Notes: generated by a model from the sequence alone, not told the origin. A DNA stretch of 32,000 bases from Ectothiorhodospiraceae bacterium WFHF3C12 (GCA_013519935.1 JACDUA010000050.1:2474-34473), one strand, 5' to 3'. Positions 4,139-28,600 are shown, numbered from the stretch's first letter. Made by a program: numbers and translations.

Positions 4139-5203
4139 GTGGAGGGCAGGTCATGGTCGGGGCGCGATTTCCGAACGATCTTCCAACCATGGCGTGCAGA
4201 TCCCAGGCTTCCTGACAGGAAGACGCTGGACCGGCTTGAGCGAGATGCCCGAGTCCGGAAGACGACACAGCAGCGATTCAGGGGGTTTCTGCCGAGCCTT
4301 GCTGATATCGACGGGGTGGAGTCTCTCGTAGCGCACTGGCAGGAGCGCGGGGTTGAGGGTGATCGCCTTGGCTGGCTTGGTGTTGTCTACTCGCTTGAGA
4401 ATAAGGGCTCCTATCCTGCTACGCGGTGGGAAATTCTGCGATTGCTCGAATTGGAGGTTGCACTGAAGCAAAGCGTTAGCGGCGACGCCCCGCACGAGTG
4501 GGAGCGTCACGTGTTCGAGATGCTGGATAAGTTCGCGCTTCTAGGGCCTGCTGGAGAGCATGTCCGTCACGGTTGGTTACCGACCTTGCCTGCCGATTCG
4601 GTGCACGAGGCGTTGCAAGGAGAATCGCAGCTTCCCCAACAAGGGCGTGCCTGGGCCGCCGAGGCATTTAGCGCTGCCTTCCTACGTCTGGCGACGCGGG
4701 TCGTGGAAGACCTCTCGGCCATGGCCTCTCAGGCATACCCGCCTGCCGAGGCGCAGTTGATTATGCCGCCCAATCTGTTGGATGAGCTCATCCCTTCGGA
4801 CCAACCTCGCGATTCAGATAGGCCGTTGAAGCGACTCATCGCGTTGTGGCAGATGCAGTTGGAAAGGATGGACGGCGACGCCTGGCCAGTAGTGAGGATC
4901 GCGCGGTCGATACCACCTGGGAGAAATAACCGTCGATCCATGGACCTCGAAGAGCAGAAACGCCGCCTCCGTGAGTGGCGAAACGGGGAGGAGTTGCCCA
5001 ACAACACGTCCGTTGTGCGATTTGCCTTGGGTTTGCTTCGTCGCGCTCAGAAGCAGCGCGACCCGAGTCGCGAGTTCCTGTGGTTGCGTTCGGCAACACT
5101 ATGTCTCGCAGTCGAGCGATTGCAACGGGAGATCAGCGGTCGTGGTCACCCCAACTCAGCCGTTGTCGAAGCCTACAGACGGCAAAGGCCACTACTGCAA
5201 TAG
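4139..5203 (+). CDS. hypothetical 354-aa helical protein
   Basis: Long ORF with normal composition, divergent from the HTH gene. GTG start at 4139, with no early in-frame ATG, so the start is uncertain. No motif recognised. Confidence 0.55.
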   Translation: MEGRSWSGRDFRTIFQPWRADPRLPDRKTLDRLERDARVRKTTQQRFRGFLPSLADIDGVESLVAHWQERGVEGDRLGWLGVVYSLENKGSYPATRWEILRLLELEVALKQSVSGDAPHEWERHVFEMLDKFALLGPAGEHVRHGWLPTLPADSVHEALQGESQLPQQGRAWAAEAFSAAFLRLATRVVEDLSAMASQAYPPAEAQLIMPPNLLDELIPSDQPRDSDRPLKRLIALWQMQLERMDGDAWPVVRIARSIPPGRNNRRSMDLEEQKRRLREWRNGEELPNNTSVVRFALGLLRRAQKQRDPSREFLWLRSATLCLAVERLQREISGRGHPNSAVVEAYRRQRPLLQ

Positions 5204-5391: not shown

Positions 5392-5454
5392 GATTGACGC
5401 CTCCTGTTCGTTGCGGATCGGTCTGCCAACTAACGGTGTGATCATCCGCGATCA

Positions 5455-5604
5455 CGGAAACAGCGTATGCAGGAGCGACTCCTCCCAGGGAGGAGGTGTT
5501 CTGGGAACTTTGAGGCGCAGCGTTCAGGGCACCGACACTGGGGCATCCGCTCAGCCCACCTCCAGAAACGCGATGATTTGTTCTCTGCTGTAGCGCTTCT
5601 TCAT
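5455..5604 (-). pseudogene. IS3-family (IS407-like) orfA 5' remnant
   Basis: GAGGAGG, then ATG at 5604 giving MKKRYSREQIIAFLEVG*. This matches the canonical MKK.R(F/Y)..EQII.FL.EAEAG start. Downstream frames keep traces (ADAPVS.., T...W). A possible TGAAGG... left terminus ends at 5690. Confidence 0.5.
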
Positions 5605-5869
5605 GCCCAACCTCCTCGCTTCGAGTGATTGGACTCCAGATCGCCACGCTACTCAATCTTTGGGGAATGTCGCGCAGCGGTCTACCTTCAACCGAGGAGT
5701 ATGCGTTGGGTGGTGAAAACCTCTAATGCAATGCCTAAATGTGTCCCCCGCTTTCGAGCAACTGCAGGGTCAGGGAAATGTGCCAAGAGGGGCATCGGCG
5801 CATTTGCAACACCCGGGAGTGGCGGCTACATTTCATTTATCCGTCGTGCCGGATTAGGGAAGTCCATCG

Positions 5870-7318
5870 ATGGCCGAGTTCGTACCGCTTTTCGATATCA
5901 ACGTCGGTCCTCACGGCACTTTCCGCCGCAGCGGAGACCTCCAGTCTACGCCCTCGCAGGTCGATGAGCTGTTCAACGCCGTGCGCCGCAGCGGCAAGCG
6001 CCGGGTGGTATTGCATTTCCACGGCGGGCTCATCGCCGAACAGTCCGGGCTGGCCATCGCCCGAAAGATGACGCCGTTATACGAGTGCGTAGGTGCGTAC
6101 CCGGTCAACATCATCTGGGAGACCGGGCTGTGGGAGACGGTCACGCGCAATCTCGACTCGCTCGGTCGTACGCGCCTGTTCAAGAAGCTGGTGAAGTACG
6201 GTCTGGATCAGCTCCGTAAGCGCATGGGAGTCGACATAGGTGGCCGAGGCACTAGCGGGTCCGGTCTGAGCGACACCGAGTTCGAGCGTATCTGGCAATC
6301 CGGCTCGGTCATCAGCGGTGCGAGCGCCATGGGACGCGGCGCTGGCACAACGCTCACTGAGCTGGAGGTCGAACAGGCCAAGGACCAGATCGAGCTCGAT
6401 CTGGAGTCGGAGCTGCAGGCCGATGCGGAGTTGCAGAACCTGCTGGACGAGGAGGCCCCGTTCACCGAATTGCTGGACCCAACGGTGGCCGAGGGTGCCC
6501 GGACACGGGGCGGCCGAGGTATGATCAGCACGGCGGTGATCGCAGTACGGCTGGCCAAGGTGGTGTACCAGGTTCTACGGCGCATGCTGAACGGTCGGGA
6601 CCATGGGCTATATCCGACCCTTATCGAGGAGCTGCTGCACGAGTTCTACCTTGCAGATCTGGGCGCCTGGGTCTGGGGCGGCATGAAGGATGCCGCGGCT
6701 GCCATGTTTCGACGCAACGAGCTTCCATTGGGCAGGGATAGCCATGTCGGCAGCTACTTCCTGGAGCGGCTGGCAACGCTGCTGACCTCGGAAGATGGTT
6801 GGTCCGTCGACCTGGTGGGGCACAGCGCCGGTTCCATCGCGATCTGCGAACTACTCAAGGCGGCGGCCGACCGCCATGACGGGTTTCAAGCCAGGAATAT
6901 CCTGTTCCTCGCCCCGGCGGTCACCTCTCGGCTCTTTCATGAGGAGCTGACGAGCAAGCCGGAACGCTTCGAGCGCTTTCGCATGTACACCATGACGGAT
7001 GCGCTGGAGGCGGTAGACGCGCTGTTCCCACCGCTCTACCCTCGGTCGCTTCTGTACTTCATATCCGGCGTCCTCGAGCCCGAATCGGATACGCACCTAG
7101 CAGGGCTCGCCCGCCATGCCGCCGGGGAGCCGCCCTACACGGATCCGCACCTGCTGGCCGTGCACGAGTTCCTGCACGAGCCGGGCGCGAACCGTCTAGT
7201 GCTGTCGGTCACCGATGACGGCGCTGCTCCGGGGCAACGTTCGGCGTCAACCTGCCACGGCGGGTTCGACGACGACCCGTTGACCCGTGAGAGCTTGGCT
7301 TGGATGGTGGGGAGTTGA
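5870..7318 (+). CDS. alpha/beta-hydrolase-fold protein (esterase/lipase-like) with a large charged insertion
   Basis: 482 aa. VVLHFHGGL looks like an oxyanion-hole HGG. The nucleophile elbow is VDLVGHSAGSIA, with Ser319 codon agc at 6824-6826. The C-terminal CHGGFDDDP is a His candidate. Confidence 0.8.
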   Translation: MAEFVPLFDINVGPHGTFRRSGDLQSTPSQVDELFNAVRRSGKRRVVLHFHGGLIAEQSGLAIARKMTPLYECVGAYPVNIIWETGLWETVTRNLDSLGRTRLFKKLVKYGLDQLRKRMGVDIGGRGTSGSGLSDTEFERIWQSGSVISGASAMGRGAGTTLTELEVEQAKDQIELDLESELQADAELQNLLDEEAPFTELLDPTVAEGARTRGGRGMISTAVIAVRLAKVVYQVLRRMLNGRDHGLYPTLIEELLHEFYLADLGAWVWGGMKDAAAAMFRRNELPLGRDSHVGSYFLERLATLLTSEDGWSVDLVGHSAGSIAICELLKAAADRHDGFQARNILFLAPAVTSRLFHEELTSKPERFERFRMYTMTDALEAVDALFPPLYPRSLLYFISGVLEPESDTHLAGLARHAAGEPPYTDPHLLAVHEFLHEPGANRLVLSVTDDGAAPGQRSASTCHGGFDDDPLTRESLAWMVGS

Positions 7319-8352
7319 CGGGCGTGCCCATCAACCGACACGACTATGCCTTGGTCATCGGCATCGACGACTATCCGCAGTTCCGCTCGCTGCGCGGCGC
7401 CAAAAATGATGCAGAGCGTTTCGCCGACTGGCTGACCGACACGGCCATCGGCGGCGGGCTGCCACCGGCCAACTGCCGGCTGGTGCTGTCCGCCAAGGCA
7501 CCGGTGAGACCGACCTTCGAGGAGGTCAACGATGCGCTCAAGGATCTCTACGACGCATCCAGGGCTGACCATAAACGCCGCCGATTCTACTTCTATTTCG
7601 CCGGGCACGGGCAAACTGGCACTGCCAGCGAGGTCAATCTCTGCCTCGCCGAGTGGAGCATGGGTGCCGGGCTTCGCATCGCATTGGCATACTCCGAGTG
7701 GGAGTCAACAATCGTCGACTGCACGGGCTTCGAGGAAGTGTTCTTCCTGCTCGACTGCTGCCGAACTCGCGTTCACGGCGGCGGCGGCATGCCGCCGCTC
7801 AAGGTAACCTGCGCCAAGCCGCAGACCCAGACCGGGGAAACCTTCGTCGCCTACGCCACGGAGTTCCAGAACCAGTCATTCGAGGCCGAGCGGGGCGTTC
7901 AGCCCGGCAGCGGTGACCCGATCTACGGCGGTCACTTCACCGAGGCGCTGATAATGGCGCTAACGGGCGGTGCCGCTACAGACGGCGGAGGAGTGCGCGC
8001 CCCCGACCTGAAGCGATACATGGAGCAGTGGACGCCGCGCCTGGCACAGGAGGCCACGAACCCGGAGCAGCGCGCCATCATCAAGAACGGGCTCTCATCG
8101 ATCCCAGAGGACCCGGTGCTCGGAGCAGCCGAGCCCACGGGGACACTGCAGGTGGAGATCCCCGGCACTCGTCCCGGCCCAATCCATCTGCTCGCGCCCG
8201 ACGGCAGTCTGGTCGAGAAAGGCGGCCCCGGAGTCTGGCAGGTTCCCGGGCTACGTTACGGCCAATACACCCTTCTTGACACCGCCAACGGCGAGGAGAA
8301 GGTCTGCCACTTCCAGCCGCGGGATCCTATGCGGCGCTCGCGGTTCGATTAA
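7300..8352 (+). CDS. caspase-family (peptidase C14) protease with C-terminal beta-sandwich (PEGA/CarboxypepD_reg-like) domain
   Basis: YALVIGIDDY..L.GAKNDAERFADWL, then FYFAGHG (His103, cac 7606-7608) and FLLDCCRT (Cys153/154, 7756-7761). The start is ambiguous: TTG 7300, TTG 7315 or GTG 7324. It overlaps or abuts the upstream stop at 7316-7318. Confidence 0.85.
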   Translation: MDGGELTGVPINRHDYALVIGIDDYPQFRSLRGAKNDAERFADWLTDTAIGGGLPPANCRLVLSAKAPVRPTFEEVNDALKDLYDASRADHKRRRFYFYFAGHGQTGTASEVNLCLAEWSMGAGLRIALAYSEWESTIVDCTGFEEVFFLLDCCRTRVHGGGGMPPLKVTCAKPQTQTGETFVAYATEFQNQSFEAERGVQPGSGDPIYGGHFTEALIMALTGGAATDGGGVRAPDLKRYMEQWTPRLAQEATNPEQRAIIKNGLSSIPEDPVLGAAEPTGTLQVEIPGTRPGPIHLLAPDGSLVEKGGPGVWQVPGLRYGQYTLLDTANGEEKVCHFQPRDPMRRSRFD

Positions 8353-8369
8353 CCGGGGAGGTTACGGCG

Positions 8370-9752
8370 GTGCTGACCATACGACTTCAAAATCCTAGGA
8401 ACCTGCTTCTAAACCCCGAGGACGTCAGTCTCTCCCTGTTCGATGGCTATGGCCGCGTGATCCTTGACCAGTGCACTGGTCAGTACGAAACCGTCGCTGA
8501 TGTAGCCACTGGGCTCTATACCGTGCGCGTGGAGGGCGCCGGCCGGATGATCGAGCGCAGTATGAGGGTAGAGGGCGACACTGTTATTGATGTCGAGATC
8601 CCCAAACAGTTCTCGCCCATTCCCGTGCGGGGCGCGTCCAGCACCCACGAGTATTACGAATACCCCGCTGCCAATCTCACGCAACAATTCGATGGGAACA
8701 CCACCGGACCCATCGGTGAAACGTCAGCCGCAGCGGCGGAACTGGTGGTGATAATCCGCGCGGCTAACGATCGCGTGGCACCGGACGGCGATCTTGGCGA
8801 CGGACTGCTGCTGACCGAGCTGGACGGTTCGCCGCTACGGCCAATCAACCTCGACCACTGTCACCGCGAGGACAATGGCTTCCAGGGTTTCCGCGCCAGG
8901 CTGGCGCCGGGGACCTATTTCCTCTATTACCCGGGCACACCCCCGCGCGCTCTGACTGTCCAAACGTTCGACGGCCGACAGACGCAGGTGTTCGTGACTT
9001 TCTGGGGGCGGCCTATCCTAGAGGAGGCGGGCATACTGCTGCCCGAAATCGGTGAGGGCTTCTACTCGGAAGACGAGGAAAACCGCGCCGCGGATTTCGC
9101 GATAAGAGGGCTGCTCAACAACCGGGACTGGCTCCCAAAGGAGGTCATGCGTAACCTGCTCGACGGTAAGTTCCGTAATCCCATGCTGGGGCTGCTTGGC
9201 GCCTTCGTGCTGCTCCAGCGGGAACTGCCCAATTGGAATTTGTTGGCTACCGTCGCTGGCAACCTGGAGAACCTAATTCCCGGATCCAACGATGTGCAGG
9301 TGCTGGTGCGGATCTTGGCCGAGGAGTGGGGCTTGGCCAATTCGTCCGCCCCGGCAGAGCTTCGGCCTGAGGCGCCGCCGATGCTACGCGCTGCCGCGGA
9401 GCATGCCATTCGCATCAGCTGGGGCGATGCCGACTACATCAGTGCCGATGGGATCCTCGGGCGCATGGCGCCCAGTCTTTACGCGGACTCGGCCTGGAAC
9501 AGCTGGCAGCCCCCCGCCGATTGGGCCCGGAAGGGCTTGAACTACAAGGCGCTATTCTCACCTGGGGCCGCAGCGTCGTGGGAGGCCGAGACCAGCACCC
9601 CCGGTGACTGGATAAATGAGACTGTCGCCGCCCAGGCACGCGTACTCCAGGCCCGCAATGAACGCGTGGACGCTGTTGCCATCGCCCGCCAGGTCGGGTT
9701 GCCGCTGTCTACTGTGGCGGCTTTAGTCGAGCAGAATTTCCTAGGGCGCTGA
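8370..9752 (+). CDS. hypothetical 460-aa protein: two N-terminal beta-sandwich-like units plus a helical C-terminal domain
   Basis: GTG start with GGGGAGG 7 nt upstream, 17 nt after the caspase stop. G.Y beta-sandwich signatures (ATGLYTVRVEG, LAPGTYFLYY). The remainder is unassigned. Confidence 0.8.
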   Translation: MLTIRLQNPRNLLLNPEDVSLSLFDGYGRVILDQCTGQYETVADVATGLYTVRVEGAGRMIERSMRVEGDTVIDVEIPKQFSPIPVRGASSTHEYYEYPAANLTQQFDGNTTGPIGETSAAAAELVVIIRAANDRVAPDGDLGDGLLLTELDGSPLRPINLDHCHREDNGFQGFRARLAPGTYFLYYPGTPPRALTVQTFDGRQTQVFVTFWGRPILEEAGILLPEIGEGFYSEDEENRAADFAIRGLLNNRDWLPKEVMRNLLDGKFRNPMLGLLGAFVLLQRELPNWNLLATVAGNLENLIPGSNDVQVLVRILAEEWGLANSSAPAELRPEAPPMLRAAAEHAIRISWGDADYISADGILGRMAPSLYADSAWNSWQPPADWARKGLNYKALFSPGAAASWEAETSTPGDWINETVAAQARVLQARNERVDAVAIARQVGLPLSTVAALVEQNFLGR

Positions 9753-9775: not shown

Positions 9776-10050
9776 GTTGGCGTATGCGCTTGTGAGGGCG
9801 ACGCCATCGAGGCCACGAATGGCCTCCACAAGACTGAGATGATTCGTCACCGTACCCTTGGCCGAGCTTGGAGGCCGTGGCATCCGCCCCTCTAGATTGG
9901 GAGGAATGGTGCGATAACCGGCTCGAAGTGAATTCCATCGGCAACCGACCGCCTGCGGAAGTCGAAGCTGAATGCCAAGAGCAACTTGCCGAGTCGGCCC
10001 AGTCCACCCTACGCAAAACAAGGGGTATCCGGAAGAGTCGGGGCGGCTCA
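9776..10050 (+). mobile_element. IS3-family OrfB C-terminal remnant plus right inverted repeat
   Basis: GDAIEATNGLHKTEMIRHR..., a frameshift, then DWEEWCDNRLEVNSIGNRPPAEVEAEC. Compare DNA.AE..NGLYK.ELI and W..W.N.RRL...IG..PPAE.E. The terminus GGTATCCGGAAGAGTCGGGGCGGCTCA (10024-10050) matches the ends at 18374 and 22843 at 22/27 positions. Confidence 0.65.
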
Positions 10051-10401
10051 CCGGCTTCAGAATTTGAGGCTCCGCATGAGCGCGGGATCCAATGCCGCGC
10101 CCATGCTACCCAACGAGTTGTCAGCCTAGCCCACCATTGCCCCGAAAGTGTGGCCTAAACATGGAGATAGTTTCGGGCCTTAGTGGTAAGTGGGGCCACG
10201 CCGCAGACGACACGTCGGTTGGAAGACTACACTACGGTGGGTGCCCACGAGTTCCGTCCTTGTCGGACATTGTGCTGCTCGCGGTCATTCTGCTTGCCCC
10301 GTTATCGCTGGCCACTAAGAGACGAAGTGGACACACCTGGATCCGAGATTACCCCAAAGCACTCAAATGGCATCGCTCTCGCCACGTAAAAGAGGGACGA
10401 T

Positions 10402-11232
10402 ATGCAACCAGTTGAAGCTCTTGTATGGATCTTTGTGGCCGTTTTTCTACTGACTGCTTTACTGACTCTGGGCGGCATAGTCGAGAACATGCGGTTTGTC
10501 AACATTCCAGAGCGTTACCTAAAAGGATTATACGCTGCCTTGCTTATGCAGATTGCTACCGCAGGGGTTGCTATCGCCGTGGATACACTCGAGGAGGATT
10601 CTCCACCTCCGCCGGACCCCATCCCCGAAAGCCTAACGTTTACTTCGCTACTTTACGAACTTAATGTGACCTTGGACAAACTCGAAAAGGACGACGGCTC
10701 CCTTTTGCGTTACTACGTAAGATCTGGAGATGGGGAGCGGCTATTTGATGGTCTTTACTCCAACGCGCTATTCGCTGCCGGCGCAAGCCTTACGGGAACT
10801 ACGAGCCCACTAACCTACGGGAACCTGTATGAGTGGGACTCGAAATCTGGAAAGTTGCGCACAAAGTACTTTTATGGCCCATATAATGATGAAGTGATTT
10901 TGCGATCGTGGCCGGTAACAGGGCCTCATCAGGGAGTCGCTAGCAAGGCATTTACAAGCGGCGAAATTAGAATAGTAAACTCGACGGCATCAGTGCTAAA
11001 ACTAGAGGGAGAGATTCGTTTGAAGGCGTTCGTGTCTGTGCCAATCCCAGGTACTGGACCAGATGTTGATGACTCGCAAGGAATAGTATTACTTCATGTT
11101 GATTCGGCCAAGGAACACGTGTTTCCTGTGTCGGGCGAATGGGAGGGCAGTACTATGCGTATTCGAATAAAGCGCTTAGCTGAAACTATTGCAAGAATTA
11201 ATGCGTTGCGATCGGAGTATCTGATGAAATAG
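10402..11232 (+). CDS. two-TM membrane protein with C-terminal GAF-like domain
   Basis: AGAGGGA SD. TM helices VEALVWIFVAVFLLTALLTLGGIV and LYAALLMQIATAGVAIAV, then a Pro-rich linker. GVASKAFTSGEIRIVN ... VSVPIPG...SQGIVLLHVDS resembles GAF core strands. AT-richer codon usage. Confidence 0.6.
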   Translation: MQPVEALVWIFVAVFLLTALLTLGGIVENMRFVNIPERYLKGLYAALLMQIATAGVAIAVDTLEEDSPPPPDPIPESLTFTSLLYELNVTLDKLEKDDGSLLRYYVRSGDGERLFDGLYSNALFAAGASLTGTTSPLTYGNLYEWDSKSGKLRTKYFYGPYNDEVILRSWPVTGPHQGVASKAFTSGEIRIVNSTASVLKLEGEIRLKAFVSVPIPGTGPDVDDSQGIVLLHVDSAKEHVFPVSGEWEGSTMRIRIKRLAETIARINALRSEYLMK

Positions 11233-11235
11233 AGC

Positions 11236-11937
11236 ATGTTAACGCAAAACGGTGGCGCGGCAATGGTGGTAGAGACTGATTTAGCCAACACTGTGAACAG
11301 GTTATGGTGCGACTTCAAGAACAAAGACAGTGCATCTATTCATCGAAAGATGTCGCCAATATTAGCTCATGCGCTTGATCAAGCGCGTGAAGAGTCTTTA
11401 GAGTTAGCCTATTCATTCAGGCACAACCTAGGCTTTTCGAAGTACGTGTTAGCTGAATGTGGTGTAGAAAATTGTCAATTGAGGCTCCATGTGTGGGAAG
11501 CTGACGTGGTAGATATGCCTCATAGTCACCCGTGGGACTTTCAGTCATTGGTATTAAGTGGCCGTCTTTGGAATTCGACTTATCGGGCGGCTGGGTCTGG
11601 GGTGATGGTCGATGAAATAGTAGCTCGTTCTGACTTCCGTCGACCTGGTTTCCGATACAATAGGTGCGGAAAAAGATTCATTGAGATGACATCATCTGAA
11701 GAGCTTGCAGCGTTCGATTTCTACGGCTTGCCCTATTATTGCGTTCACGCGTCTTCAACATCGTTCTGTGGAGCAGCGACTTTATTCCTTCGTGGGCCTG
11801 CAAAAAGAAAGAAAAGTTATATTTATAAGTTCCAAGAAGAAGAAAAGAAAAGGCCTTATCTGGAAAAAATTAGAAAGGATGAGTACGAAGAATCTGTAAG
11901 CTGGCTGGCGTCACTTTTTTATGAAGCTAGCGAATAG
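11236..11937 (+). CDS. cupin-like metal-binding protein
   Basis: Starts 4 nt after the upstream stop. MPHSHPWDFQSLVLSGRL is an H.H...(x)G cupin motif-1-like stretch. Lys/Glu-rich tail. Alternative start at 11263. Confidence 0.55.
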   Translation: MLTQNGGAAMVVETDLANTVNRLWCDFKNKDSASIHRKMSPILAHALDQAREESLELAYSFRHNLGFSKYVLAECGVENCQLRLHVWEADVVDMPHSHPWDFQSLVLSGRLWNSTYRAAGSGVMVDEIVARSDFRRPGFRYNRCGKRFIEMTSSEELAAFDFYGLPYYCVHASSTSFCGAATLFLRGPAKRKKSYIYKFQEEEKKRPYLEKIRKDEYEESVSWLASLFYEASE

Positions 11938-12513
11938 GACATCATTATTAAGCGACTCCGCTTCTTGAGCCACATATCCATGCAGATGGAACAGGCGGCG
12001 CCATTGCATAGCCGACATCCGTTGCACGTGTGTTACGTCCAACTCGTGAGCCGGATTGTTGTACCTTCCATTCAACCCTAGAGGTACAACAATGAGTATT
12101 TTTTTTATCTTGTGGCTGGCAGCGGTGTTCAAAAATGAGAATAATTGATATCGATTAAGGTGTTCTAAGGTATGAAAAGACAAGATTGTGTCTATCTGAT
12201 TCCCTATTAGTAATGGTGAAATAGTGTTGGTGTAGTGATAGCAATAATGAGGCTCTATGGCGTTTCGGATAGCATAAGGCGAAATATCTGTCCCATAGGC
12301 CTCAATGCCGAAACTGCGCAGGCCGTGGACCATAAAACCCTTAGCGCAGCCAAAATCCAACACTCGGCTTGATGTCGAAAGCCCTAAGGATAATGCAGTT
12401 CGAGTCCATATTTTATTCTTGTGACTATCAAAATCATAGGACAAATAGTTCGAATATTTCGCGTCGCCGCTGTCGAAATATTCAATGCCGTATGCGCAAG
12501 GTGGTCGAATCAC
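11911..12513 (-). CDS. class I SAM-dependent methyltransferase
   Basis: Motif I RVLDFGCAKGFMV, then an acidic loop YGTDIS. The post-I/II spacing is typical. GTG start. The 3' end is convergent with the cupin gene and overlaps it by 27 nt. Confidence 0.8.
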   Translation of the reverse strand: MIRPPCAYGIEYFDSGDAKYSNYLSYDFDSHKNKIWTRTALSLGLSTSSRVLDFGCAKGFMVHGLRSFGIEAYGTDISPYAIRNAIEPHYCYHYTNTISPLLIGNQIDTILSFHTLEHLNRYQLFSFLNTAASHKIKKILIVVPLGLNGRYNNPAHELDVTHVQRMSAMQWRRLFHLHGYVAQEAESLNNDVLFASFIKK

Positions 12514-15728: not shown

Positions 15729-17636
15729 TTATGTCATGTAGGTGTGCGGGTTGGACAGCCGCAGGGTGGCGTCGGGAGCCGATCCCTCGTCTATGCGGAT
15801 ACTCGGTCGAACCGCGCGCCTGAGCGCCTCCTTGACCTTCGGGACGGGTGAGCGAGGCAGGCCGGCCAACCGCTTGATGCGCCACTCGGTGACGGACTCG
15901 CCGCGGCGGGCGAACTCGCGAGCGGCCCACGCGACCCGCCTCACCTGCGCCGCCTCAACCGACTCCGTGCACTCGGCAAGCGCAGCCCGTGTCTGAGGTA
16001 ACAAGTGGCGGTACTTCTCGTAGGTGGCGGTCGCGTCCACTGTCCGCAGTAGGGCGGTGCGAGATAGCCGGCGGGGTTTGAGTGGGCAAGCCAAGGCCTG
16101 CGTGGCGGCTTGCCGGATCTCGCTCGCAAGTTGCGAATCGCGTCCTGCCCAGTCGCACAGGCGGCGGCGAGGCCGGGGTCTGCGTGGGGGCTGGAACTGT
16201 GCTCTGAGCCATTCGTAGTCGTGCCTGTAGAACCAGGCATAGGAGGCGGAATGCATCGCCCGGTAGTCGGACAGGGAGCCATCCGCGCGGTGCCGTCGGA
16301 ACCGGGCGACGCGCCGATGCTCCTGGGCCCGGCGACGGGACAGCTGGTGGTTACGCCATAGGCTTTTGAGCTCCGGGTTTGCGGCGAGCGTCCGGTAGAC
16401 CGTCGATGTCGACACACCGGTCCTATCGACGGTTTCATCGACACTGCAACCACCCCGAAGCACACGAATGATCTCCTGCTCCTTTTCGTTACTGATGTGC
16501 TTGCGACGCCGGGGCGTCGCCACGCCCAGTGCCTCTGCGCGGAGACGCACGGTCGTGATGGAAAGCCCAAGCCGACGGGCAACCTCGGTCAGCGTGAGGC
16601 CCTGACTCCCGATGAGTTGGAGAAGTTCTGTGGCCGACTCGTCGTCTTCGTGCTGTTGATCCGACGCGAACGCTACCGGCGCTGCAGTGGTGCGAGGCGG
16701 CGCGTAGTCCAGGAATCGCCCCAGGTCGCCGAAGAGCCAGCTGATCAGCAACAGATGCTTGGCGGGATGCTTGCCGGTGCGATGGGGCCTGAGCAGGCCG
16801 GCCAGCCAGTCGCATTCGCCATGCGGGTCCAGGCGCAGCCCGTTGAAGAGCGGCGTTGCACGAAGCGCCGCGTACTCGGCGCAGAACGCCTCGTGGATCT
16901 CGCCCTGGCGAAGCCGGCCGCTGGGGGTGGTCAGCCCCAGCTCGGCGAGTCTCGCTCGGTAGGTGTCACGCCAGCCGTCGGCCACACTTGCGGGAAGCCG
17001 CGCGGTAAGAAGCTGGTGGCTCAGTTGGGCAAGAGCCACCAGAGACGCCGGAGGTGCATCAGCACGACCCGGCACTCGGCCACCCACACCCGCGTCTGGC
17101 AGGTACAGAGCGTGACGGGCATGCCGCCCGCCAACGTCAACGAGTGGCACCAGCCACTGGTCGGGGTGGCGATGGCAGGCGGCCACGCCCGGTAGTTGAT
17201 GGGAGACATGGGCGTAGCCAACGCCATAGGCCGCACGATCCTCGACCACGCACGCGGGGCAACACTGCGGCCGGGGCGGCGAGCGCACGCCGGCGCGAGT
17301 GAGCCCAAGGCCCATCCACAGCCGGTGCCCTTCAATCCCTTGCATGGCCTGACCCAGCTGCGCCGCCTGCGCCCGAGAGAGGCAGGGCCGGTAGTACGCG
17401 ATTGCCGTGTGATGCTCGCTGATCCACGCATCCTGCCTGGTGCGATCCCGAACACTGCTTCCGAGAGCGCCGAGCCGCGTGGGCAGCGGCGTTGCGAGTA
17501 TGGCGTGGCGATCCTGGACGCACCGCCGAAGCGTATCGGTCCCGCAGTGATCGCCCGAGAGGAGGTATCGCCGACTGATCCAGCTGTGCACAGTCTCATC
17601 CGGGAGGGGCTCGAGCTGGAAGGTGGGCGGGGGCAT
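15729..17636 (-). CDS. tniQ: TniQ/TnsD-like protein (Tn7-type target-selector family) with two C-terminal HTH units
   Basis: The N-terminus LEPLPDETVHSWISRRYLLSG and the later CCPACVVEDRAAYGVGYAHVSHQLPGVAACHRH fit the TniQ pattern (P.p.E.l.S...R..; CP.C......G..Y....W.l.....C..H). HTHs: LTLTEVARRLGLSITTVRLR and VDETVDRTGVSTSTVYRTL. Confidence 0.8.
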   Translation of the reverse strand: MPPPTFQLEPLPDETVHSWISRRYLLSGDHCGTDTLRRCVQDRHAILATPLPTRLGALGSSVRDRTRQDAWISEHHTAIAYYRPCLSRAQAAQLGQAMQGIEGHRLWMGLGLTRAGVRSPPRPQCCPACVVEDRAAYGVGYAHVSHQLPGVAACHRHPDQWLVPLVDVGGRHARHALYLPDAGVGGRVPGRADAPPASLVALAQLSHQLLTARLPASVADGWRDTYRARLAELGLTTPSGRLRQGEIHEAFCAEYAALRATPLFNGLRLDPHGECDWLAGLLRPHRTGKHPAKHLLLISWLFGDLGRFLDYAPPRTTAAPVAFASDQQHEDDESATELLQLIGSQGLTLTEVARRLGLSITTVRLRAEALGVATPRRRKHISNEKEQEIIRVLRGGCSVDETVDRTGVSTSTVYRTLAANPELKSLWRNHQLSRRRAQEHRRVARFRRHRADGSLSDYRAMHSASYAWFYRHDYEWLRAQFQPPRRPRPRRRLCDWAGRDSQLASEIRQAATQALACPLKPRRLSRTALLRTVDATATYEKYRHLLPQTRAALAECTESVEAAQVRRVAWAAREFARRGESVTEWRIKRLAGLPRSPVPKVKEALRRAVRPSIRIDEGSAPDATLRLSNPHTYMT

Positions 17637-18664: not shown

Positions 18665-20227
18665 ATGGAAAAGATTAGCCTTTTCGCCGTCACGATTGGA
18701 ATCCTCTGCCTGGCCACTTCGGCCCAGGCGACCGAAGCTACCCCATATCCGGCTCAACCGAACAGTGTCTCTGAGTGTCAGCCTGCGTTCCAGGCCAATA
18801 TAAGGCAGTCCCAGGCGCTCAATAGACGCATCAGGGCATGCATCTCCTTTGACACCATGGACTCTGAGAACTCTGTGCCCACGCCCGAGTGCGACAACAT
18901 GCGCAACTTCAGCCAGAAAAGTACTCCGCATCCGAAGTGTGCCGGCCTCTACCGCCAACAGTGCCGACTGAAGAATTTCAACGACGAAGAGTACGACGCC
19001 TGCCGGGCACGGGCCCAACGCGCGGAGGCAGCCCGTCAGGCTAAAGCTCGGGCGGCGAAGCGTGAACGCCAAGAGGCCGCCCGTCGTGCAGCTTCCCATA
19101 GGCGGGCAATTGAGCAGCGTGCCGCAATACAGAATGCCTACCGCGAACGTCTTCGATCGCGCCGTCGCGCGGCCAATGAGGCCCAAGCCAGAGCCCAGGC
19201 GAAGGCTGAGGCGGTTGCCCGTGAGTTTATCGCCTCACAGCTGCCCGAGTCCGCGCGCAAGCTGTGGTCGATGGGCGAGAAGGGCAAAGGTACCTATAAG
19301 AACGTCAGCGCGATGGTCGATGCCAGTAGCTGGGTCGCGGGCATCGAAGCGGTCGGCGGCGTCGGGCGAGACTTGAATAGCGCTGCGAATACCCACCCAA
19401 TATCGTCGACAAGTACGGATTTGGCGATCGATATGCTTGTACGGCTGCATGCCGCTGCGGCCGGCGATCTTGACGCGGCTATGGCCCAGATCGGCGCACA
19501 GGCGCCAGCTCAACGGCTTGCGGCGCGCTGGCGCCGTGTCGGCGCCGCTCACCAGCGTGACTTCACGTCGAAGGCCGCTCCAATAATCCCAGGTTATGCG
19601 GGCGGTGCCGGTTCGGATGAGGTGAGATCATTCGGCCTGCCCACCGAGCTTCACACCGCGTTGACAGAACTCGAGCGCTGGCAGGCGTCCACCGCACGCC
19701 AGCGCAAGGCAAGCTATACACAGCAGTACCAAGCTCTGGTGGATCAGGAGAAGCGCATTGCGGCGCAGCGCCAGCGCCAAGCCGAGGAGGCCCGGGCCGC
19801 GGCGGAGCGAAGAGCGGCTGAGCGACGTGAGGCTGAGCGGCGTCAGCGTGAGCGCGAGCAGGTGCGTCAGCTCGCGCGGCGTTGCGACGACCTCAAGTCA
19901 AGAACAATGGCGACTGCCTCTAAGGTTTCGCTGGACTCCGCGGAAGTTGCGTTGGATCACGTCCAGGAGCGGCGGTCCAGGCTCCGGCGGATGGGGTGCG
20001 CCCCCCACCATGTGCGCGATCTCGATCGGGTGGCAGCCCAGCTGCGTCGCTCCGTGAGAATGGAGCAGGAAGCCCGGGACCGGGAACTGCGCCAAACCAT
20101 CGAAGGCGGTATCGAGTTGCTGCGGCAATACCAACAGCTTCAAGGTGGGTCTTCGGGAGGGACCGGCGGCGGTTACGGCGGTGGCTGTGCGTCGGATGAG
20201 GCGGGTTGTCTGAATCCTCTGGACTAG
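18665..20227 (+). CDS. secreted Cys-rich N-terminal / long Arg-Ala-Glu coiled-coil protein with Gly-rich tail
   Basis: Internal ATG at 18665 with GGAGGGG upstream. Signal peptide MEKISLFAVTIGILCLATSAQA. Long AERRAAERREAERRQRE-type heptad-like stretches. The tail is GGSSGGTGGGYGGGC. Confidence 0.7.
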   Translation: MEKISLFAVTIGILCLATSAQATEATPYPAQPNSVSECQPAFQANIRQSQALNRRIRACISFDTMDSENSVPTPECDNMRNFSQKSTPHPKCAGLYRQQCRLKNFNDEEYDACRARAQRAEAARQAKARAAKRERQEAARRAASHRRAIEQRAAIQNAYRERLRSRRRAANEAQARAQAKAEAVAREFIASQLPESARKLWSMGEKGKGTYKNVSAMVDASSWVAGIEAVGGVGRDLNSAANTHPISSTSTDLAIDMLVRLHAAAAGDLDAAMAQIGAQAPAQRLAARWRRVGAAHQRDFTSKAAPIIPGYAGGAGSDEVRSFGLPTELHTALTELERWQASTARQRKASYTQQYQALVDQEKRIAAQRQRQAEEARAAAERRAAERREAERRQREREQVRQLARRCDDLKSRTMATASKVSLDSAEVALDHVQERRSRLRRMGCAPHHVRDLDRVAAQLRRSVRMEQEARDRELRQTIEGGIELLRQYQQLQGGSSGGTGGGYGGGCASDEAGCLNPLD

Positions 20228-20238
20228 GGGGCCGGATA

Positions 20239-22386
20239 ATGAGCGGTTTGCGTAAACCATGTGACTCCTGCGCCGCCGCGCTGGCGCTGTCTTTGATCCT
20301 CTTGGGTGCGTGCGATTTCCAGACGGAGGCGGCGAGTGCTCAGGCGGATGGAGACAGTAGGACTGCCCCAGCGGACGACTCGGCACCTCAAAATCCAGGA
20401 TCAGGATCCGATGTCGCGGAAGAGGTGCCTGAGGGCGCAAAGGGTGAAACGCGCGACTCCATCGCCGCCGCAATCCGCCAGGATGCCGTCGACCAATACC
20501 TTGCGAGCGCCAAGCGCGAGTCCGCGAGTCCCAATGATCAGTCACGGCACTTGGCGAAGGCTGCCAGCCATGGGGCCAAGCGCATCGTCAGCCACCTTCT
20601 GGAGGCAAAGGTTGACCCCAACGCAAGAAATGGCGAGCACGTTAGCGCGCTAGAGCTTGCGATGGCGCACGAAGCACCGGCGGTGATCAAAGCGCTTGTC
20701 GAATCTGGCGCAAGCTATCCGAAAGATGCGCCTCAGTCTTTGGCCGAGGCTGCGGGGGCCCTTGAGGATCGCGAACTCGGAAACTGGCTGTTGCGGTATG
20801 CGCGCCGTGGCCCGCATCCGGTGCTCGACGTGGCGGCACGAGGCGATGTCGACACCTTGGCTGGTCTTCTTGATCAGGAGCCACGGGCAGTCAACGCCAC
20901 CGACCCGCTAGGTATGACCGCGCTGGTCCGCGCCATACTCTCTGGGCAGCGTGAAACGGCTGAGCTGCTCCTAGCGCGCGGTGCCCACCCGAATCTGAGC
21001 GGGACCGACGGTGTCACCCCGTTGGCGGCGGCCGCCATCGCCGGCGCCGCCGAGACTGCCAGATCGCTTATCGACGCCGATGCCATCGTCGACTACGCAG
21101 GTCCTGGCGGGCGTCGACCCTTGATGGCCGCGCTTGCCGCCGCGCGGCCGAGTACGGCATGGGTGCTGTTGGATGCTGGCGCGAATCGGGGGCGCATGGC
21201 GGAGGATTCGGGTCACCCGGCTGATCTGGCTGAGGCGACGGGCCTTGGGGCGTTGGCCAAGCGGACTGGTCTCGCCCGAAGCGGGCCGAATCCGCGTGCC
21301 GAGCTTGTACAGGCAATCACCAAGGGGGACGAGGATCGTGTCCTGATGCTGATTAAGAGCAACTCAGTAATTGATGCCAATGACACGGATGATGCCGGCG
21401 TTCCCTATCTTCACCTCGCGGCGATGGCTGCCAAGCCAGCGGTGATGCGGGTTCTGCTCTCTCTAGGGGCGAAGCTTGAGGGCACAGGCCCCTCCGGAGC
21501 GAATGTGCTTGGCGTGCTGGCGGCTAACGAGGGCACCTGCAGGGCCTGCTACGAGGCAGTCTTTGATCATCAGATGGATGCGGACTTTGGTGACCGGGGT
21601 CGAGCTCGGGCTCGATTGTCGACGCTGATCAATAGCCGCGACAGGCGGGGTCGAACGGCATTTCTCAGTGCGATAATCGCTGACAAGCCCTATGAGGCGG
21701 AATGGATGATCCGCCATGCCGGTGGCGATGTGTCGAATGTTGCCGACGAGGATGGCCTCACACCAGTGGTTGCCGCCGCCATTCGCGAACACGACAAGGT
21801 AGTAGATCACTATCTGAGATGGGCGACGGCCGAGTCCTTCGGCGAAGGTGAATTCAGTATCTATGATTATGCGAGGAGTGAGGCGAACTATAGGCTCCTC
21901 GCTCGCCTTCCCTATGATCGAGACATTGAGGGTATGCGTAAGGGGTCAACGAAAACAGCGATCAAGCGCTTCCAGCGTCGCGTTAAAGAATGGGGCTACT
22001 ACCACAGCGTCATCGATGGTGTTATTGGCAAAGGCCATCGTTCGGCTATGTTTGCGCTGCTCGATGACCAGCACGATGAGGTGATCGCCCTCGCTAAGGC
22101 CTCTGAGGACCTCTCTCCCTATGAGAAACAGTGGGGCGTGAGCGAGAGCGAGAGCGGCACACTGTACTACCAGTCTTCATCGGATGGAGAAATGCGCTGG
22201 GTCGTAATTGAGTGGCCCGGGGGAGACTCATTCGTTGGTCACGTACAGAACATGACTGGTGGGCACCATGTCATGTCCAAGGGCTTCGGTGTCGTCACCC
22301 GCTCTGAGGAGCGCACAAAAGAACTGGTACTACTTGACGATACGGCATGGGATGGCCTCCAATTGATCGCGGCCGTACCTTACTAA
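20239..22386 (+). CDS. ankyrin-repeat lipoprotein with C-terminal peptidoglycan-binding (PG_binding_1-like) domain
   Basis: ATG at 20239, 11 nt after the upstream stop. Lipobox LILLGAC. Several ANK units (G.T.L..A......A.LLL..GA.PN). IKRFQRRVKEWGYYHSVIDGVIGKGHRSAM fits the PG-binding motif. Confidence 0.8.
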   Translation: MSGLRKPCDSCAAALALSLILLGACDFQTEAASAQADGDSRTAPADDSAPQNPGSGSDVAEEVPEGAKGETRDSIAAAIRQDAVDQYLASAKRESASPNDQSRHLAKAASHGAKRIVSHLLEAKVDPNARNGEHVSALELAMAHEAPAVIKALVESGASYPKDAPQSLAEAAGALEDRELGNWLLRYARRGPHPVLDVAARGDVDTLAGLLDQEPRAVNATDPLGMTALVRAILSGQRETAELLLARGAHPNLSGTDGVTPLAAAAIAGAAETARSLIDADAIVDYAGPGGRRPLMAALAAARPSTAWVLLDAGANRGRMAEDSGHPADLAEATGLGALAKRTGLARSGPNPRAELVQAITKGDEDRVLMLIKSNSVIDANDTDDAGVPYLHLAAMAAKPAVMRVLLSLGAKLEGTGPSGANVLGVLAANEGTCRACYEAVFDHQMDADFGDRGRARARLSTLINSRDRRGRTAFLSAIIADKPYEAEWMIRHAGGDVSNVADEDGLTPVVAAAIREHDKVVDHYLRWATAESFGEGEFSIYDYARSEANYRLLARLPYDRDIEGMRKGSTKTAIKRFQRRVKEWGYYHSVIDGVIGKGHRSAMFALLDDQHDEVIALAKASEDLSPYEKQWGVSESESGTLYYQSSSDGEMRWVVIEWPGGDSFVGHVQNMTGGHHVMSKGFGVVTRSEERTKELVLLDDTAWDGLQLIAAVPY

Positions 22387-25641: not shown

Positions 25642-28600
25642 ATGGCCCGTGTGGACCCACGTCGCCTAGTAGGCGCGCCGTTCCGACTTGTTCGCCGAGT
25701 TCTGGCGCTCGCCCTGAACCGAGTACTGCGTTGGGACTGGCTCCGGCGCAACCTGTGGTGGGTGCAGGGTCTGCTGGTAGTCGCAACACTAGCCGGTGGC
25801 ACGTTCGCATCATTCGCAGTGGGTTTAAGAGAACCACAACAGGGTCTAAACGCCCTGACCCATTTGTACCGCGCTATTCAACTGTTTATCGGTGAGGGCG
25901 GCTGGACCGCTGACCCAGCCGATCTGAACGGGCTTGAGCTTACGGCGCTGAACGTCGCCCGCTTCGCTGGCCCGGCTGCAACAGTCTCGGTGCTGTTAGC
26001 GCTGTTGCGCTCCTTCCATCATCGCGCGCTGTTGTGGGCTCGGCCAAGTGAAGGCCATGTCGTGCTGTGTGGCCTTGGGGACGCCGGTTTCCAGTTCGTG
26101 GAGGCCTGGTTGGATGGCGGTGCCGAGGAGGTTTTGGGGTCGGGGCTTCAGAACTGGCGGCGCGCTGACGAGCACCTGGTCGTTGTGGAGGCTGATCCCG
26201 ACCGACCTGAAGTGGAGGCCTGCACGGAGCGGGGCGTGACGGTAATGGTCGGTAATGCATGCGATCCAGCCGTGTTGAGGGCCGCGAATGTGCAGCACGC
26301 GCGCGATGTGGTCGTAGCGCTACCCGAGGATCGCCACAATATCGAGGCTGCCCTCGCCACCCGGCAGCTTCTGGAAGCCTACCGCACCGACGGGCATCAA
26401 CGAGCGGATCCGCTTCGTGTGTTCGTCCACGTCGACAGCACGTGGTTGAGCGAGCGTCTCGAGTACTTCGCCCAGTTTGGAACCGATGCACCTGCTGCCG
26501 AGATTCGCTTCTTCAGCTTGTACGAAGCCGCTGTCCGCCGAGCATTGGCAGAGCACCCGCCAGACCTCTTCGCCGCCGTCCTCGACCGCCCCAGTCCGCG
26601 ATTCGCGATCTACGGATTTGGCATGATGGGGCAGGAAGTGCTGAGGCAACTGCTGCGGATCGCGCACTATCTACCGGAACAAGCGCCGTCATTCGTCATT
26701 TACGACCAGAACGCGCAGACCCGCGAGGCTGAGTTCAAGCGGCTATTTCCGGAAGTAGACCGCCATTTCGATGTCGACTTCCAGTTGATGCCTGTGGCCG
26801 CTGAGGCGGGACTGACCGTTGAGGGCGCCGCGGAGATCGCGAACGATGTCGTCCAGCATTTCATTTGCTTCGATTCCGATCGGCGTAGCGCGGCGTTCGC
26901 GCTATCGCTGCGTCAGGCATTGCTTAAAGCTGGCCCGGACGCCCATGGAACGCCGCGCAACACACCGCTCATGGTGCGTATGCGCCACCGCGACGGCCTG
27001 GCTACCCTTCTGATGCCGGCACGGCGGCATGCAGCTCCGGAAAACTCGGATACCGAGGAGCGCATCCCTGACAATCTCTACCCGTTCGGAATGGTTGAGG
27101 ACTTGTTTACACCACAGAATCTGTTGGCGAGCCGTTCGGACCAATACGCGCGCACCCTCCACGAGTGCGGATATATGGCGACACGTGCTAGCACGACGCT
27201 ACCAAAGGTGCCCGTTGACGATGACGCCGAAAACACCAGAACTCCGCGAATAACCCAGCTTGCATTCTGCGGCGGCGGCTTGGAACGGGATGGCGCCGAT
27301 ACCTTGCGATTCGTCGCCTACACCGAAACGGGCCGAGCGTTTAGCTTCGACTTGATAACCAGGGGCAACGAACGGGGCGCCATCAAGCGGGCCAGCGATC
27401 ACTCGGACGCGGATCTCACAACTCCCGGAGAAAAAGGGGCTGAACATACGCAGGGGACGCGCGTGCTGGAGCTCACTGTTAAGCGGGGGCGAAGTGGCAA
27501 AGTGACAGAGAGGTTCACGGTTCCAGCCGACGACCCCTCGGCCGTATACCGAGTGGAGGCTGATGGCGATGCCAGGGATTCCAGATGCCGGGCATTTCGT
27601 GTCTTCGGGGAGCGCATCACGGCGCTCGCGACCTCACCGGATCAGACCTGGCTGGCCATGGGCACGGATGCCGGCGCACTCCGGAGTTGGCGCATCGACG
27701 GAGAAGAAAGCGTGCTGCCAACGGCAGCGCGCTCGGGCGAGGTGTGGCGGCGTGCGAGCGGGGTACCCTGGCGCGATCTACCCGCCCGGTTCAAGGCTTC
27801 CAACCGCCGTCAGGCCGATCACATGGAAGTGAAACTGCGTGCGGTGGGCTGCGCGAGCCACCCCAGGGACAAGGAAAGCGGCAAGTCCGACAAGCAGGGC
27901 TACGGATGGTGGCGGACAGCGTTGGAGCAAGACCACAGGTTGCTTGGAGAGACGCCGCTGCTGCGGCTTGCAAGGCTTGAGCACCAAGCCTGGAACGCAG
28001 CGCACCACGCAGCAGGGTGGCGACATGGTGAGCGCCGGGTCGATGCTGCCCGCGTCCATCAGAACCTCATCCCCTGGAGCGACCTCGACGCCGGCACCCA
28101 ATCATTCGATTCGAACCATGTTCGCCAGATTCCCCATGTGCTCGACGGCAGCTTGCGAGATCAATTCTCCGGGATCGATTCGGCTGGCGATACGGACATC
28201 GAGCGTCGTCAGCTCACGCGGGTGGTGCGAGTCGGCGTCATTGGCCCCGGCCCCATTGAGTTCCATCAGCTCGCCAAGGAGTCCGACTGGACAATTGAGA
28301 GAGCTTCCGATGTCATCGCCCAGCGAGCACAAGATAGGCTGAGCGAAATCCGGGATCGTTGGGCCAGTCTGGGCGGCGCGACGTCCATGACGTTAATGTC
28401 GGCCCTACGCGAGGGCGCGGAGCGCTCAGTCGCTGAGCACCTTCTCAAGCCGGAAGGGACACCGACTCGATCCTTGGGCTTGATCGCGGTTCTGCCTCTG
28501 CCTTTCGAAGTATTCGTCAATGATTTCCGCCGCGATGAGGACGACCCGCGCCGTTCGGTCCGCGAGTTCACGGAATTGGTCGCAAGCTCGGATCATTACA

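Follow-up and report, generated by a model that had tools for sequence, protein, structure and literature searches.

Organization of the locus

The 32,000-nt stretch of DNA analysed here, referred to as the window, comes from Ectothiorhodospiraceae bacterium WFHF3C12 (GCA_013519935.1, JACDUA010000050.1:2474-34473) and contains a cassette of three genes, designated A, B and C (Table 1), which code for an alpha/beta-hydrolase, a caspase-like protease and a protein without a recognized family, respectively. H0Z60_14565 and H0Z60_14575 show 100% identity to proteins A and C, respectively, and the RefSeq labels for the three genes are only 'alpha/beta hydrolase', 'caspase family protein' and 'hypothetical protein'. 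The three open reading frames (ORFs), closely spaced on the same strand, and the junctions between them were found to be as described in a first-pass annotation made from the DNA sequence alone; this includes the GTG start of gene C, preceded by a GGGGAGG motif of its own after the stop codon of the caspase gene. We also agree with that annotation that the cassette has no gasdermin, nucleoside triphosphatase (NTPase) or TPR partner.

Several start codons are possible for gene B. Its longest ORF extends from 7300 to 8352, with TTG 7300, TTG 7315 and GTG 7324 as in-frame candidates, and the TGA stop codon of gene A (7316-7318) lies inside or just ahead of this start region. GTG 7324 is the preferred prediction because it leaves a gap of +5 nt, which fits the family norm: in 76 homologous loci the distance from the A stop to the B start is typically +2 to +13 nt. 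Scans for transcription signals were uninformative, since the one promoter-like site that was detected lies inside gene B (1.2 such sites are expected by chance) and no terminator-like site was found.

Table 1. Features of the cassette, of its borders and of related loci. Positions are counted from the first nucleotide of the window, except where a locus (L) or protein (P) identifier is given; a hyphen between two residues marks the proposed cut.
Feature	Position	Strand	Remarks
Gene A	5870..7318	+	ATG start, 482 aa; alpha/beta-hydrolase, proposed latent (zymogen) effector
Proposed cleavage site 1, R126-G127	6245..6250	+	basic residue in 80/82, Gly in 76/82 homologues; segment 126-129
Acidic helical insert, residues 127-216	6248..6517	+	proposed excised inhibitory fragment; net charge -13
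Possible auxiliary site, R156-G157	6335..6340	+	basic residue in 57/82, Gly in 42/82 homologues; segment 149-159; uncertain
Proposed cleavage site 2, R216-G217	6515..6520	+	basic residue in 80/82, Gly in 76/82 homologues; segment 213-216
GGTGGGGAG, Shine-Dalgarno-like, for gene B	7306..7314	+	within the end of gene A, 9 nt before GTG 7324
Gene B	7324..8352	+	caspase-like (C14) protease, 342 aa from GTG 7324
GGGGAGG, Shine-Dalgarno-like, for gene C	8355..8361	+	direct sequence reading
Gene C	8370..9752	+	GTG start, 460 aa; proposed scaffold or sensor coupling caspase and effector
IS3-family transposase gene remnant (3' end)	9808..10051	+	blastn 66-70% identity to annotated plasmid IS3-family transposase genes
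Possible IS3 OrfA start remnant	5440..5607	-	translation MKKRYSREQIIAFLEVG followed by a stop; in-frame stops; resemblance by eye
Metzincin loci	L122, L129-L134, L144, L147, L149, L153, L156, L160-L162		e.g. L161:2330-3010
Further metzincin instance	L006:1221-1907
C-fusion loci	L132:5893-10281, L156:5845-10305, L160:5881-10278, L168:11552-15901, L087:10133-13792		L168 is Mesorhizobium pOM4
C-fusion proteins	P0181, P0233, P0231, P0175, P0271

Conservation of the three-gene unit

To collect relatives of A, each GTDB species was represented by one genome and scanned with a pattern, which gave 251 relatives; the best 80 loci were kept, and B and C were detected in them with hidden Markov models built from the families (for C, tblastn was also used). 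B lies directly downstream of A in 76 of these 80 loci, and 75 contain C. Of the four loci lacking B, three stop at a contig edge; the remaining one (L038) has room downstream, yet carries neither B nor C. The gaps within the trio are mostly shorter than 15 nt, with B and C typically overlapping by 14 nt. The 80 loci come from at least eight phyla, the record titles naming Pseudomonadota, Bacteroidota, Chloroflexota, Planctomycetota, Verrucomicrobiota, Myxococcota, Gemmatimonadota and Actinomycetota. Because the gene order is kept in 76/80 (B) and 75/80 (C) genomes across phyla, the trio is a conserved unit and not a chance arrangement, and the synteny of the three genes thus holds beyond the window.

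Variants of this organization tie the three products together still further. Eight loci encode B and C as a single polypeptide of 740-870 amino acids, with the caspase at about residues 3-270 and C starting from about residue 290. One locus (L039:162-3068) encodes a C-A fusion, in which C occupies residues 4-367 and a full-length hydrolase residues 478-968, and two others (L109 and L136) display the permuted gene order B-C-A. Fusions and rearrangements are classical evidence of association; they therefore indicate physical cooperation among the three proteins, in which C is tied both to the protease and to the hydrolase.

Gene A: a predicted hydrolase with two near-invariant (R/K)-G sites

The motifs HFHGG (49-53) and GHSAG (containing S319) and residue H463 are invariant in 81-82 homologues of A: HGG 51-53, GHSAG/S319 and H463 are kept in every homologue having a residue at that column, in a family with a mean column identity of 52%. 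The acids D377, E380 and D383 are 87-99% conserved, and E380 is kept wherever the homologue has a residue at that column. Since the catalytic residues are conserved, A is predicted to be an active Ser-His-acid hydrolase; the GHSAG motif had already been pointed out in the first-pass annotation. The AlphaFold2 model of the protein is of good quality, with a predicted local distance difference test score (pLDDT) of 87.4 and a predicted template modelling score (pTM) of 0.88. Assignment to a known family was not straightforward. The score of A against DUF900 (PF05990) is 17.2 bits, under the Pfam cut-off of 20.5, and a minority of A homologues carry a precomputed PF05990 match. Foldseek returned no significant neighbour for the model (best E = 0.035), the weak ones being lipases, esterases, a monoglyceride lipase, a DDHD phospholipase-type domain and the type VI secretion system (T6SS) lipase Tle3; a profile search against PDB sequences likewise gave nothing significant (best E = 0.21).

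The weak DUF900 match and the lipase-like character of these weak structural neighbours, with Tle3 among them, could be taken to mean that the cassette serves the proteolytic maturation of a secreted lipase or of an interbacterial toxin, a housekeeping or offensive role in which C would be a helper or immunity protein. We consider this highly improbable. The DUF900 score is below threshold, none of the three proteins has a signal peptide or transmembrane segment, and the trio is missing from most genomes and scattered across phyla. Nor were recurring secretion-system genes seen among the families of immediate neighbours in other genomes (n = 122; the 25 commonest families listed). The absence of transmembrane segments from A, B and C argues for a predicted cytoplasmic system rather than a secreted lipase.

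A second set of conserved positions in A is formed by its (R/K)-G sites, two of which bracket an acidic helical insert (Table 1). The columns flanking these sites are variable or gapped in the 82 homologues aligned, and the sites fall in the three segments (126-129, 149-159 and 213-216) in which alone the pLDDT of the model drops below 50. The net charge of the insert has a median of -13 across the 82 homologues (range -26 to -2), for a length of 68-115 amino acids. Just after the second site, residues 218-240 constitute the most hydrophobic helix of the protein, which would form the new N-terminus of the A fragment after the second cut. The idea, put forward in the first-pass annotation, that the hydrolase is a protease-licensed effector gains support from the near-invariant (R/K)-G sites in predicted disordered loops, from the acidic insert and from a published protease-hydrolase pair (see below).

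Gene B: a caspase-like protease with proposed Arg/Lys specificity

Gene B matches Pfam Peptidase_C14 (PF00656) with E = 6.5e-15 (55.9 bits, cut-off 21.4) and the PADLOC 'caspase' model with 2.3e-18, and by these matches is a bona fide C14 peptidase. Its score against NCBIfam caspase_w_EACC1 (NF047832) is 65.4 bits for a cut-off of 140, and no small EACC1-like gene was found among the ORFs of the cassette. The AGHG and LDCC motifs noted previously are indeed present. With residues counted from TTG 7300, H103, C154, D37, D152 and E195 are kept in 72/72 homologues and E146 in 67/72 (93%). The catalytic cysteine had first been assigned to C153, which is 97% conserved in the same set; we correct it to C154 (C146 when counted from GTG 7324), the cysteine kept in all 72 homologues. 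The last ~100 amino acids resemble a beta-sandwich and are missing in some homologues (259-263 amino acids).

Like metacaspases and orthocaspases (C14B), B appears to combine a His-Cys dyad with the caspase-haemoglobinase fold, whereas no p10-type region was recognized in it. Its LRGAKND motif resembles the metacaspase motif that, we assume, provides the S1-pocket Asp for Arg/Lys specificity, and its conserved acids sit where metacaspases presumably build their Arg/Lys-specific S1 pocket. Indirect hints as to the residue ahead of the cut (Arg/Lys as for metacaspases, Asp as for caspases) come from the conserved D37, E146, D152 and E195 and from the basic residues at the proposed sites of A. 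B would be a metacaspase-like cysteine protease cutting after Arg or Lys.

Gene C: a widespread protein without a family

No match was found for gene C in Pfam, NCBIfam or PADLOC. A word-indexed search returned 13 relatives, which made C look very rare; this view was abandoned as a sensitivity artefact, since an exhaustive profile search gave 2,802 clusters at 50% identity, including 1,642 with E <= 1e-30. The AlphaFold2 model (pLDDT 83, pTM 0.82) consists of two beta-sandwich domains (residues 1-76 and 123-223) and a helical domain (236-460). The helical core is the most conserved portion of the protein, and the motifs KFxNPMLGL (267-275) and PPMLR (336-340) are invariant. In Foldseek searches of the PDB the sandwiches matched generic Ig/transthyretin-like sandwiches alone and the helical domain matched nothing; the profile search of PDB sequences gave only marginal matches to gingipain C-terminal domains.

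The suggestion that the 460-aa protein is a sensor or scaffold is supported by the eight B-C fusions, by the C-A fusion and by its constant pairing with the caspase while the effector varies. C would bind the caspase and recruit or hold the effector, as a scaffold and probably as the trigger-sensing subunit.

Exchange of the effector and fusions of C

A second sample was centred on C and consisted of metagenomic contigs around C homologues. In this sample B precedes C wherever the contig allows, and A is found in about half of the loci.

In 15 loci the gene upstream is not A and codes instead for an astacin-like metzincin of ~225 amino acids (Table 1), with HEFGHALGLIHEH, a Met-turn SIMMYP and a Pfam Astacin match of 2.8e-6. 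In 11/11 sequences the last residue of this protein's short N-terminal extension is basic and A(A/G)L comes next; this A(A/G)L resembles what we take to be the N-terminus of mature astacin. An Arg/Lys-specific protease could plausibly recognize this (R/K)-A(A/G)L as a propeptide junction. Astacin zymogens offer a parallel, in that the presumed N-terminal propeptide of the cassette's metzincin is short and its last residue is a conserved basic one; we know of no description of astacin activation by a caspase-like protease in the bacterial cytoplasm. This version of the cassette suggests a caspase-to-metalloprotease activation cascade.

In two further loci (L140:1592-2788 and L142:714-1910) another, unrelated-looking alpha/beta-hydrolase, of 398 amino acids, precedes the caspase-C pair. 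It has Thioesterase/Abhydrolase matches and carries VR-G and QR-G motifs of its own. Its family is rich in Streptomyces.

C itself was found fused at its C-terminus to a variety of domains: trypsin plus PLD, TIR with an NB-ARC/AAA-like (STAND-like) region, astacin, a pro-kumamolisin activation domain (sedolisin-type), REC, HATPase/GAF and a 3-keto-disaccharide-hydrolase-like domain. The trypsin plus PLD fusions include a 1,449-aa protein of a Mesorhizobium plasmid, encoded after an A-B pair. Since both the upstream enzyme and the fusions of C vary, the caspase-C pair is the constant core of the system and the neighbouring enzyme is exchangeable.

A broader, tentative reading, which we put forward with some doubt, is that C represents a large and so far unrecognized family of NTPase-independent adaptor or sensor platforms, each docking a caspase-like protease on one side and, on the opposite side, a latent effector that can be exchanged; those observed are two alpha/beta-hydrolase families, the astacin-like metzincin, and PLD, TIR and sedolisin-type modules. 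If so, C would play in bacteria the part of a caspase-recruitment scaffold and would stand apart from STAND/Avs, cyclic-oligonucleotide-based antiphage signalling systems (CBASS), Thoeris and CRISPR-linked protease systems, and its platforms would include a caspase-to-metalloprotease cascade.

The same observations bear on whether C senses at all. Within the same protease-to-zymogen scheme, it might be a stoichiometric inhibitor or chaperone of the antitoxin kind, which would keep the caspase or the hydrolase inactive and the loss or degradation of which under stress or infection would free the activity. B is the constant partner of C, often coupled to it through the 14-nt overlap and sometimes fused to it; the conservation of C peaks in the helical core (KFxNPMLGL, PPMLR) and not in a fast-evolving surface; and it has no recognizable ligand-binding or NTPase domain. 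All this would suit an inhibitor. However, an inhibitor would have to come off its target or be degraded, which fits poorly with the covalent B-C and C-A fusions, and the varied effector and signalling domains at the C-terminus of C form a pattern expected of an adaptor or sensor platform. We judge an inhibitory C to be rather unlikely and retain the scaffold, probably trigger-sensing, as the preferred role.

Comparison with known systems

The closest published parallel is a protease-hydrolase pair of Lysobacter capsici AZ78, in which LcCaspase cuts the adjoining LcHydrolase at R73 and R117 (R-G), the N-terminal piece and the C-terminal one together kill E. coli and conservation of the R-G motifs extends to 161 homologues (Evans et al., bioRxiv Nov 2025; PMC12642450). 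The arrangement resembles ours in that an alpha/beta-hydrolase gene adjoins a gene for a caspase-like protease, two conserved Arg-Gly sites bracket an internal fragment (dispensable there, presumably excised here) and the nearest fold relatives of the hydrolase, which for A are weak matches, are lipase-like. The two differ in several respects. LcHydrolase is, by its published description, ~300 amino acids long, as compared with ~480 for A; its N-terminal fragment has 73 residues (126 in A) and its insert 44 (90 in A). The insert of A is strongly acidic, and A has a possible third site. That work describes its proteases as carrying fused WD40 or STAND sensors, whereas here a separate protein, C, accompanies the protease. 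Cleavage was demonstrated for LcHydrolase, whereas for A it is proposed from the conserved sites. The 398-aa hydrolase family may be closer to the hydrolase of Evans et al. than A is; a homology search with the L140 hydrolase returned the Streptomyces-rich family and no Lysobacter.

Caspase domains of the vWA-MoxR-VMAP ternary systems are always accompanied by an adjoining alpha/beta-hydrolase (Kaur et al., eLife 2020; PMC7159879), and the two neighbours have been read as cooperating in a conflict system, much as we read A and B. In our case, by contrast, the constant third component is C, and no vWA, MoxR or VMAP gene was found in the window or among the 25 commonest neighbour families. In Liu et al. 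(2026 NAR) caspases come up for type IV Thoeris alone, a system different from this cassette.

A further likeness is to bacterial gasdermins. In gasdermin-protease systems, said to have been described by Johnson and colleagues in Science in 2022, an adjoining caspase-like protease reportedly relieves a latent death effector of its inhibitory segment. A caspase-like neighbour would likewise free a latent death effector in our cassette; the gasdermin is a pore former that undergoes one C-terminal cut, whereas A is a predicted enzyme with two internal proposed cuts. Scans with family models gave no gasdermin match for A, C or the flanking ORFs.

When A, B and C were searched against PADLOC-DB v2.0.0, the generic 'caspase' model matched B, while A and C matched nothing at E <= 0.1, so that the caspase alone was recognized and no named system emerged. 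We found no paper describing the trio, and no mention of a C-like partner in PMC12642450. The first-pass annotation was likewise aware of no named system of this three-gene composition. The protease-hydrolase principle is not new: the pairing was reported in 2020 (PMC7159879) and its biochemistry in 2025 (PMC12642450). As far as we could find, the undescribed part is C with its swappable effectors.

Genomic context and mobility

According to the first-pass annotation, the module is bounded by IS3 fragments. On the right this proved correct, a remnant of an IS3-family transposase gene being recognized by blastn (Table 1). The left border did not stand in the same way, since blastn with that segment gave no database match, and its IS3 likeness is only plausible by eye. 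The GC content of the window swings from 44% to 69%, and the window looks like a mosaic mobile region. It contains a TnsD/TniQ-type gene for Tn7-like target selection at 15729-17636 on the minus strand (Pfam TnsD, 5.4e-44), as well as two adjacent TIR-domain genes on the plus strand (29501-30370 and 30507-32000); the second of these gives weak PADLOC matches to PDC-S66, SAVED_TIR and ThsB, and its ORF reaches the end of the window without a stop. The trio's closest relative (L001) has three integrases on one side and genes for nSTAND6, CHAT and SIR2 on the other. We count the IS3 remnant, the TnsD/TniQ and TIR genes, the mosaic GC content and the integrases and nSTAND6, CHAT and SIR2 genes of L001 in favour of the mobile cell-death cassette proposed below.

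The immediate neighbours in other genomes are heterogeneous, and no recurrent fourth gene was found among the 122. A minority are of defence type: type I restriction-modification, mad2, PbeA, DpdF-like and GajB-like. On the only IMG/VR contig with a homologue of A (IMGVR_UViG_3300011630_000002, L170:7875-12149), this homologue is followed by two co-directional ORFs which are B- and C-like by size alone, the three ORFs coding for 512, 364 and 566 amino acids. The cassette could therefore ride on a predicted phage or prophage, but rarely does so.

These data are also the ones from which a role unrelated to phages might be argued, namely a regulated cell-death or stress module with the same caspase-licensed hydrolase and responding to envelope, proteotoxic or developmental signals. 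Most immediate neighbours elsewhere are not defence genes, viral contigs hardly ever carry the trio, REC, HATPase/GAF or PAS-like modules are attached to C in some homologues, and stress sensing has been raised for protease-effector modules by Evans et al. (PMC12642450). Against it count the patchy cross-phylum distribution with variable neighbourhoods, the insertion sequence/integrase context, the fusion of some C homologues to the TIR/STAND-like and PLD modules typical of immunity genes, and the TIR genes and Tn7-like TnsD within the same window. We hold this explanation to be quite unlikely.

A proposed mechanism

The reading that we favour, and which on balance we think probable, is that a caspase controlled by C cleaves A twice (at R126 and R216) and frees the acidic insert, and that the resulting active enzyme kills or arrests the cell, most likely in abortive infection. 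It draws on sequence conservation, structural models and analogy. A would be produced as an inactive zymogen, kept off by the insert (residues 127-216) located between the N-terminal strands and the catalytic core. A trigger, presumably a phage cue, would act on C (step 1), upon which the caspase would be activated, probably by oligomerization (step 2), and would cut A at R126-G127 and R216-G217 and possibly at R156-G157 (step 3). Release of the acidic fragment would yield an active lipase- or esterase-like enzyme (step 4) and the cell would be killed or arrested (step 5). We infer the cut at the (R/K)-G sites, the sensing by C, the substrate and the phage trigger; the logic of cleavage is borrowed from the LcHydrolase analogue, and a phage-defence role of the family is likewise proposed by inference. 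The cassette would, taken as a whole, be a widespread, self-contained, horizontally mobile, cytoplasmic three-component cell-death unit, probably of the abortive-infection type.

Several observations weigh against this reading. The likeness of A to LcHydrolase rests on a published description, by which A is ~180 amino acids longer, and A has no significant structural neighbour in either the Foldseek or the PDB-sequence search. Low pLDDT in the models shows flexibility, not cleavage, and the possible third site is conserved only moderately (57/82 basic, 42/82 Gly). The alignment of A with the 398-aa hydrolase family is confined to the surroundings of the nucleophile elbow (hhalign probability 48%), and the design common to both may be convergent. 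The defence-island signal is modest because only a minority of the 122 neighbours are defence genes, most of the trio's neighbours elsewhere being ordinary ones, and a homologue of A occurs on only one of 2.9 million viral contigs. Finally, the fusions of C to REC, HATPase/GAF and a 3-keto-disaccharide-hydrolase-like domain seem to point to signalling for which phages are not required.

Activation of death effectors by proteolysis is coming to be seen as a central principle of bacterial immunity. The cassette would add to it a compact and widespread version, the hydrolase occurring in at least 251 species genomes and C in ~2,800 clusters, in which the control subunit is a beta-sandwich and helical protein and not a STAND NTPase, a WD40 or TPR protein or a nucleotide-signal receptor. 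Because it is fused to protease and to substrate and the effector is swapped between enzyme classes, C is a candidate new sensing or coupling module. The three proteins also constitute a tractable system in which to study how a bacterial caspase is switched on, and the predicted cut sites R126-G127 and R216-G217, together with the catalytic residues C154 and S319, are open to direct test.

Other features of the window

Several further features of the window were recorded. The region is possibly the cargo of, or adjacent to, a Tn7-like element, and the pair of TIR genes may be a separate defence locus. A 726-aa ankyrin-repeat protein encoded at 20206-22386 (+) matches the PADLOC candidate PDC-M72A (2.5e-33), and a 1,118-aa protein with TrkA_N and RyR domains is encoded at 25642-28998 (+). 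Just upstream of the left IS-like remnant lies a 354-aa ORF (4139-5203, +) without a Pfam, NCBIfam or PADLOC match. On the other side of the cassette, positions 10400-12500 form a low-GC island (44-48%, as compared with ~60-65% around it), which contains two ORFs without a family match (10402-11232 and 11236-11937) and, on the minus strand, a methyltransferase gene (11911-12513). The island has the look of an insert of its own, gained by horizontal transfer, adjoining the IS3 remnant.

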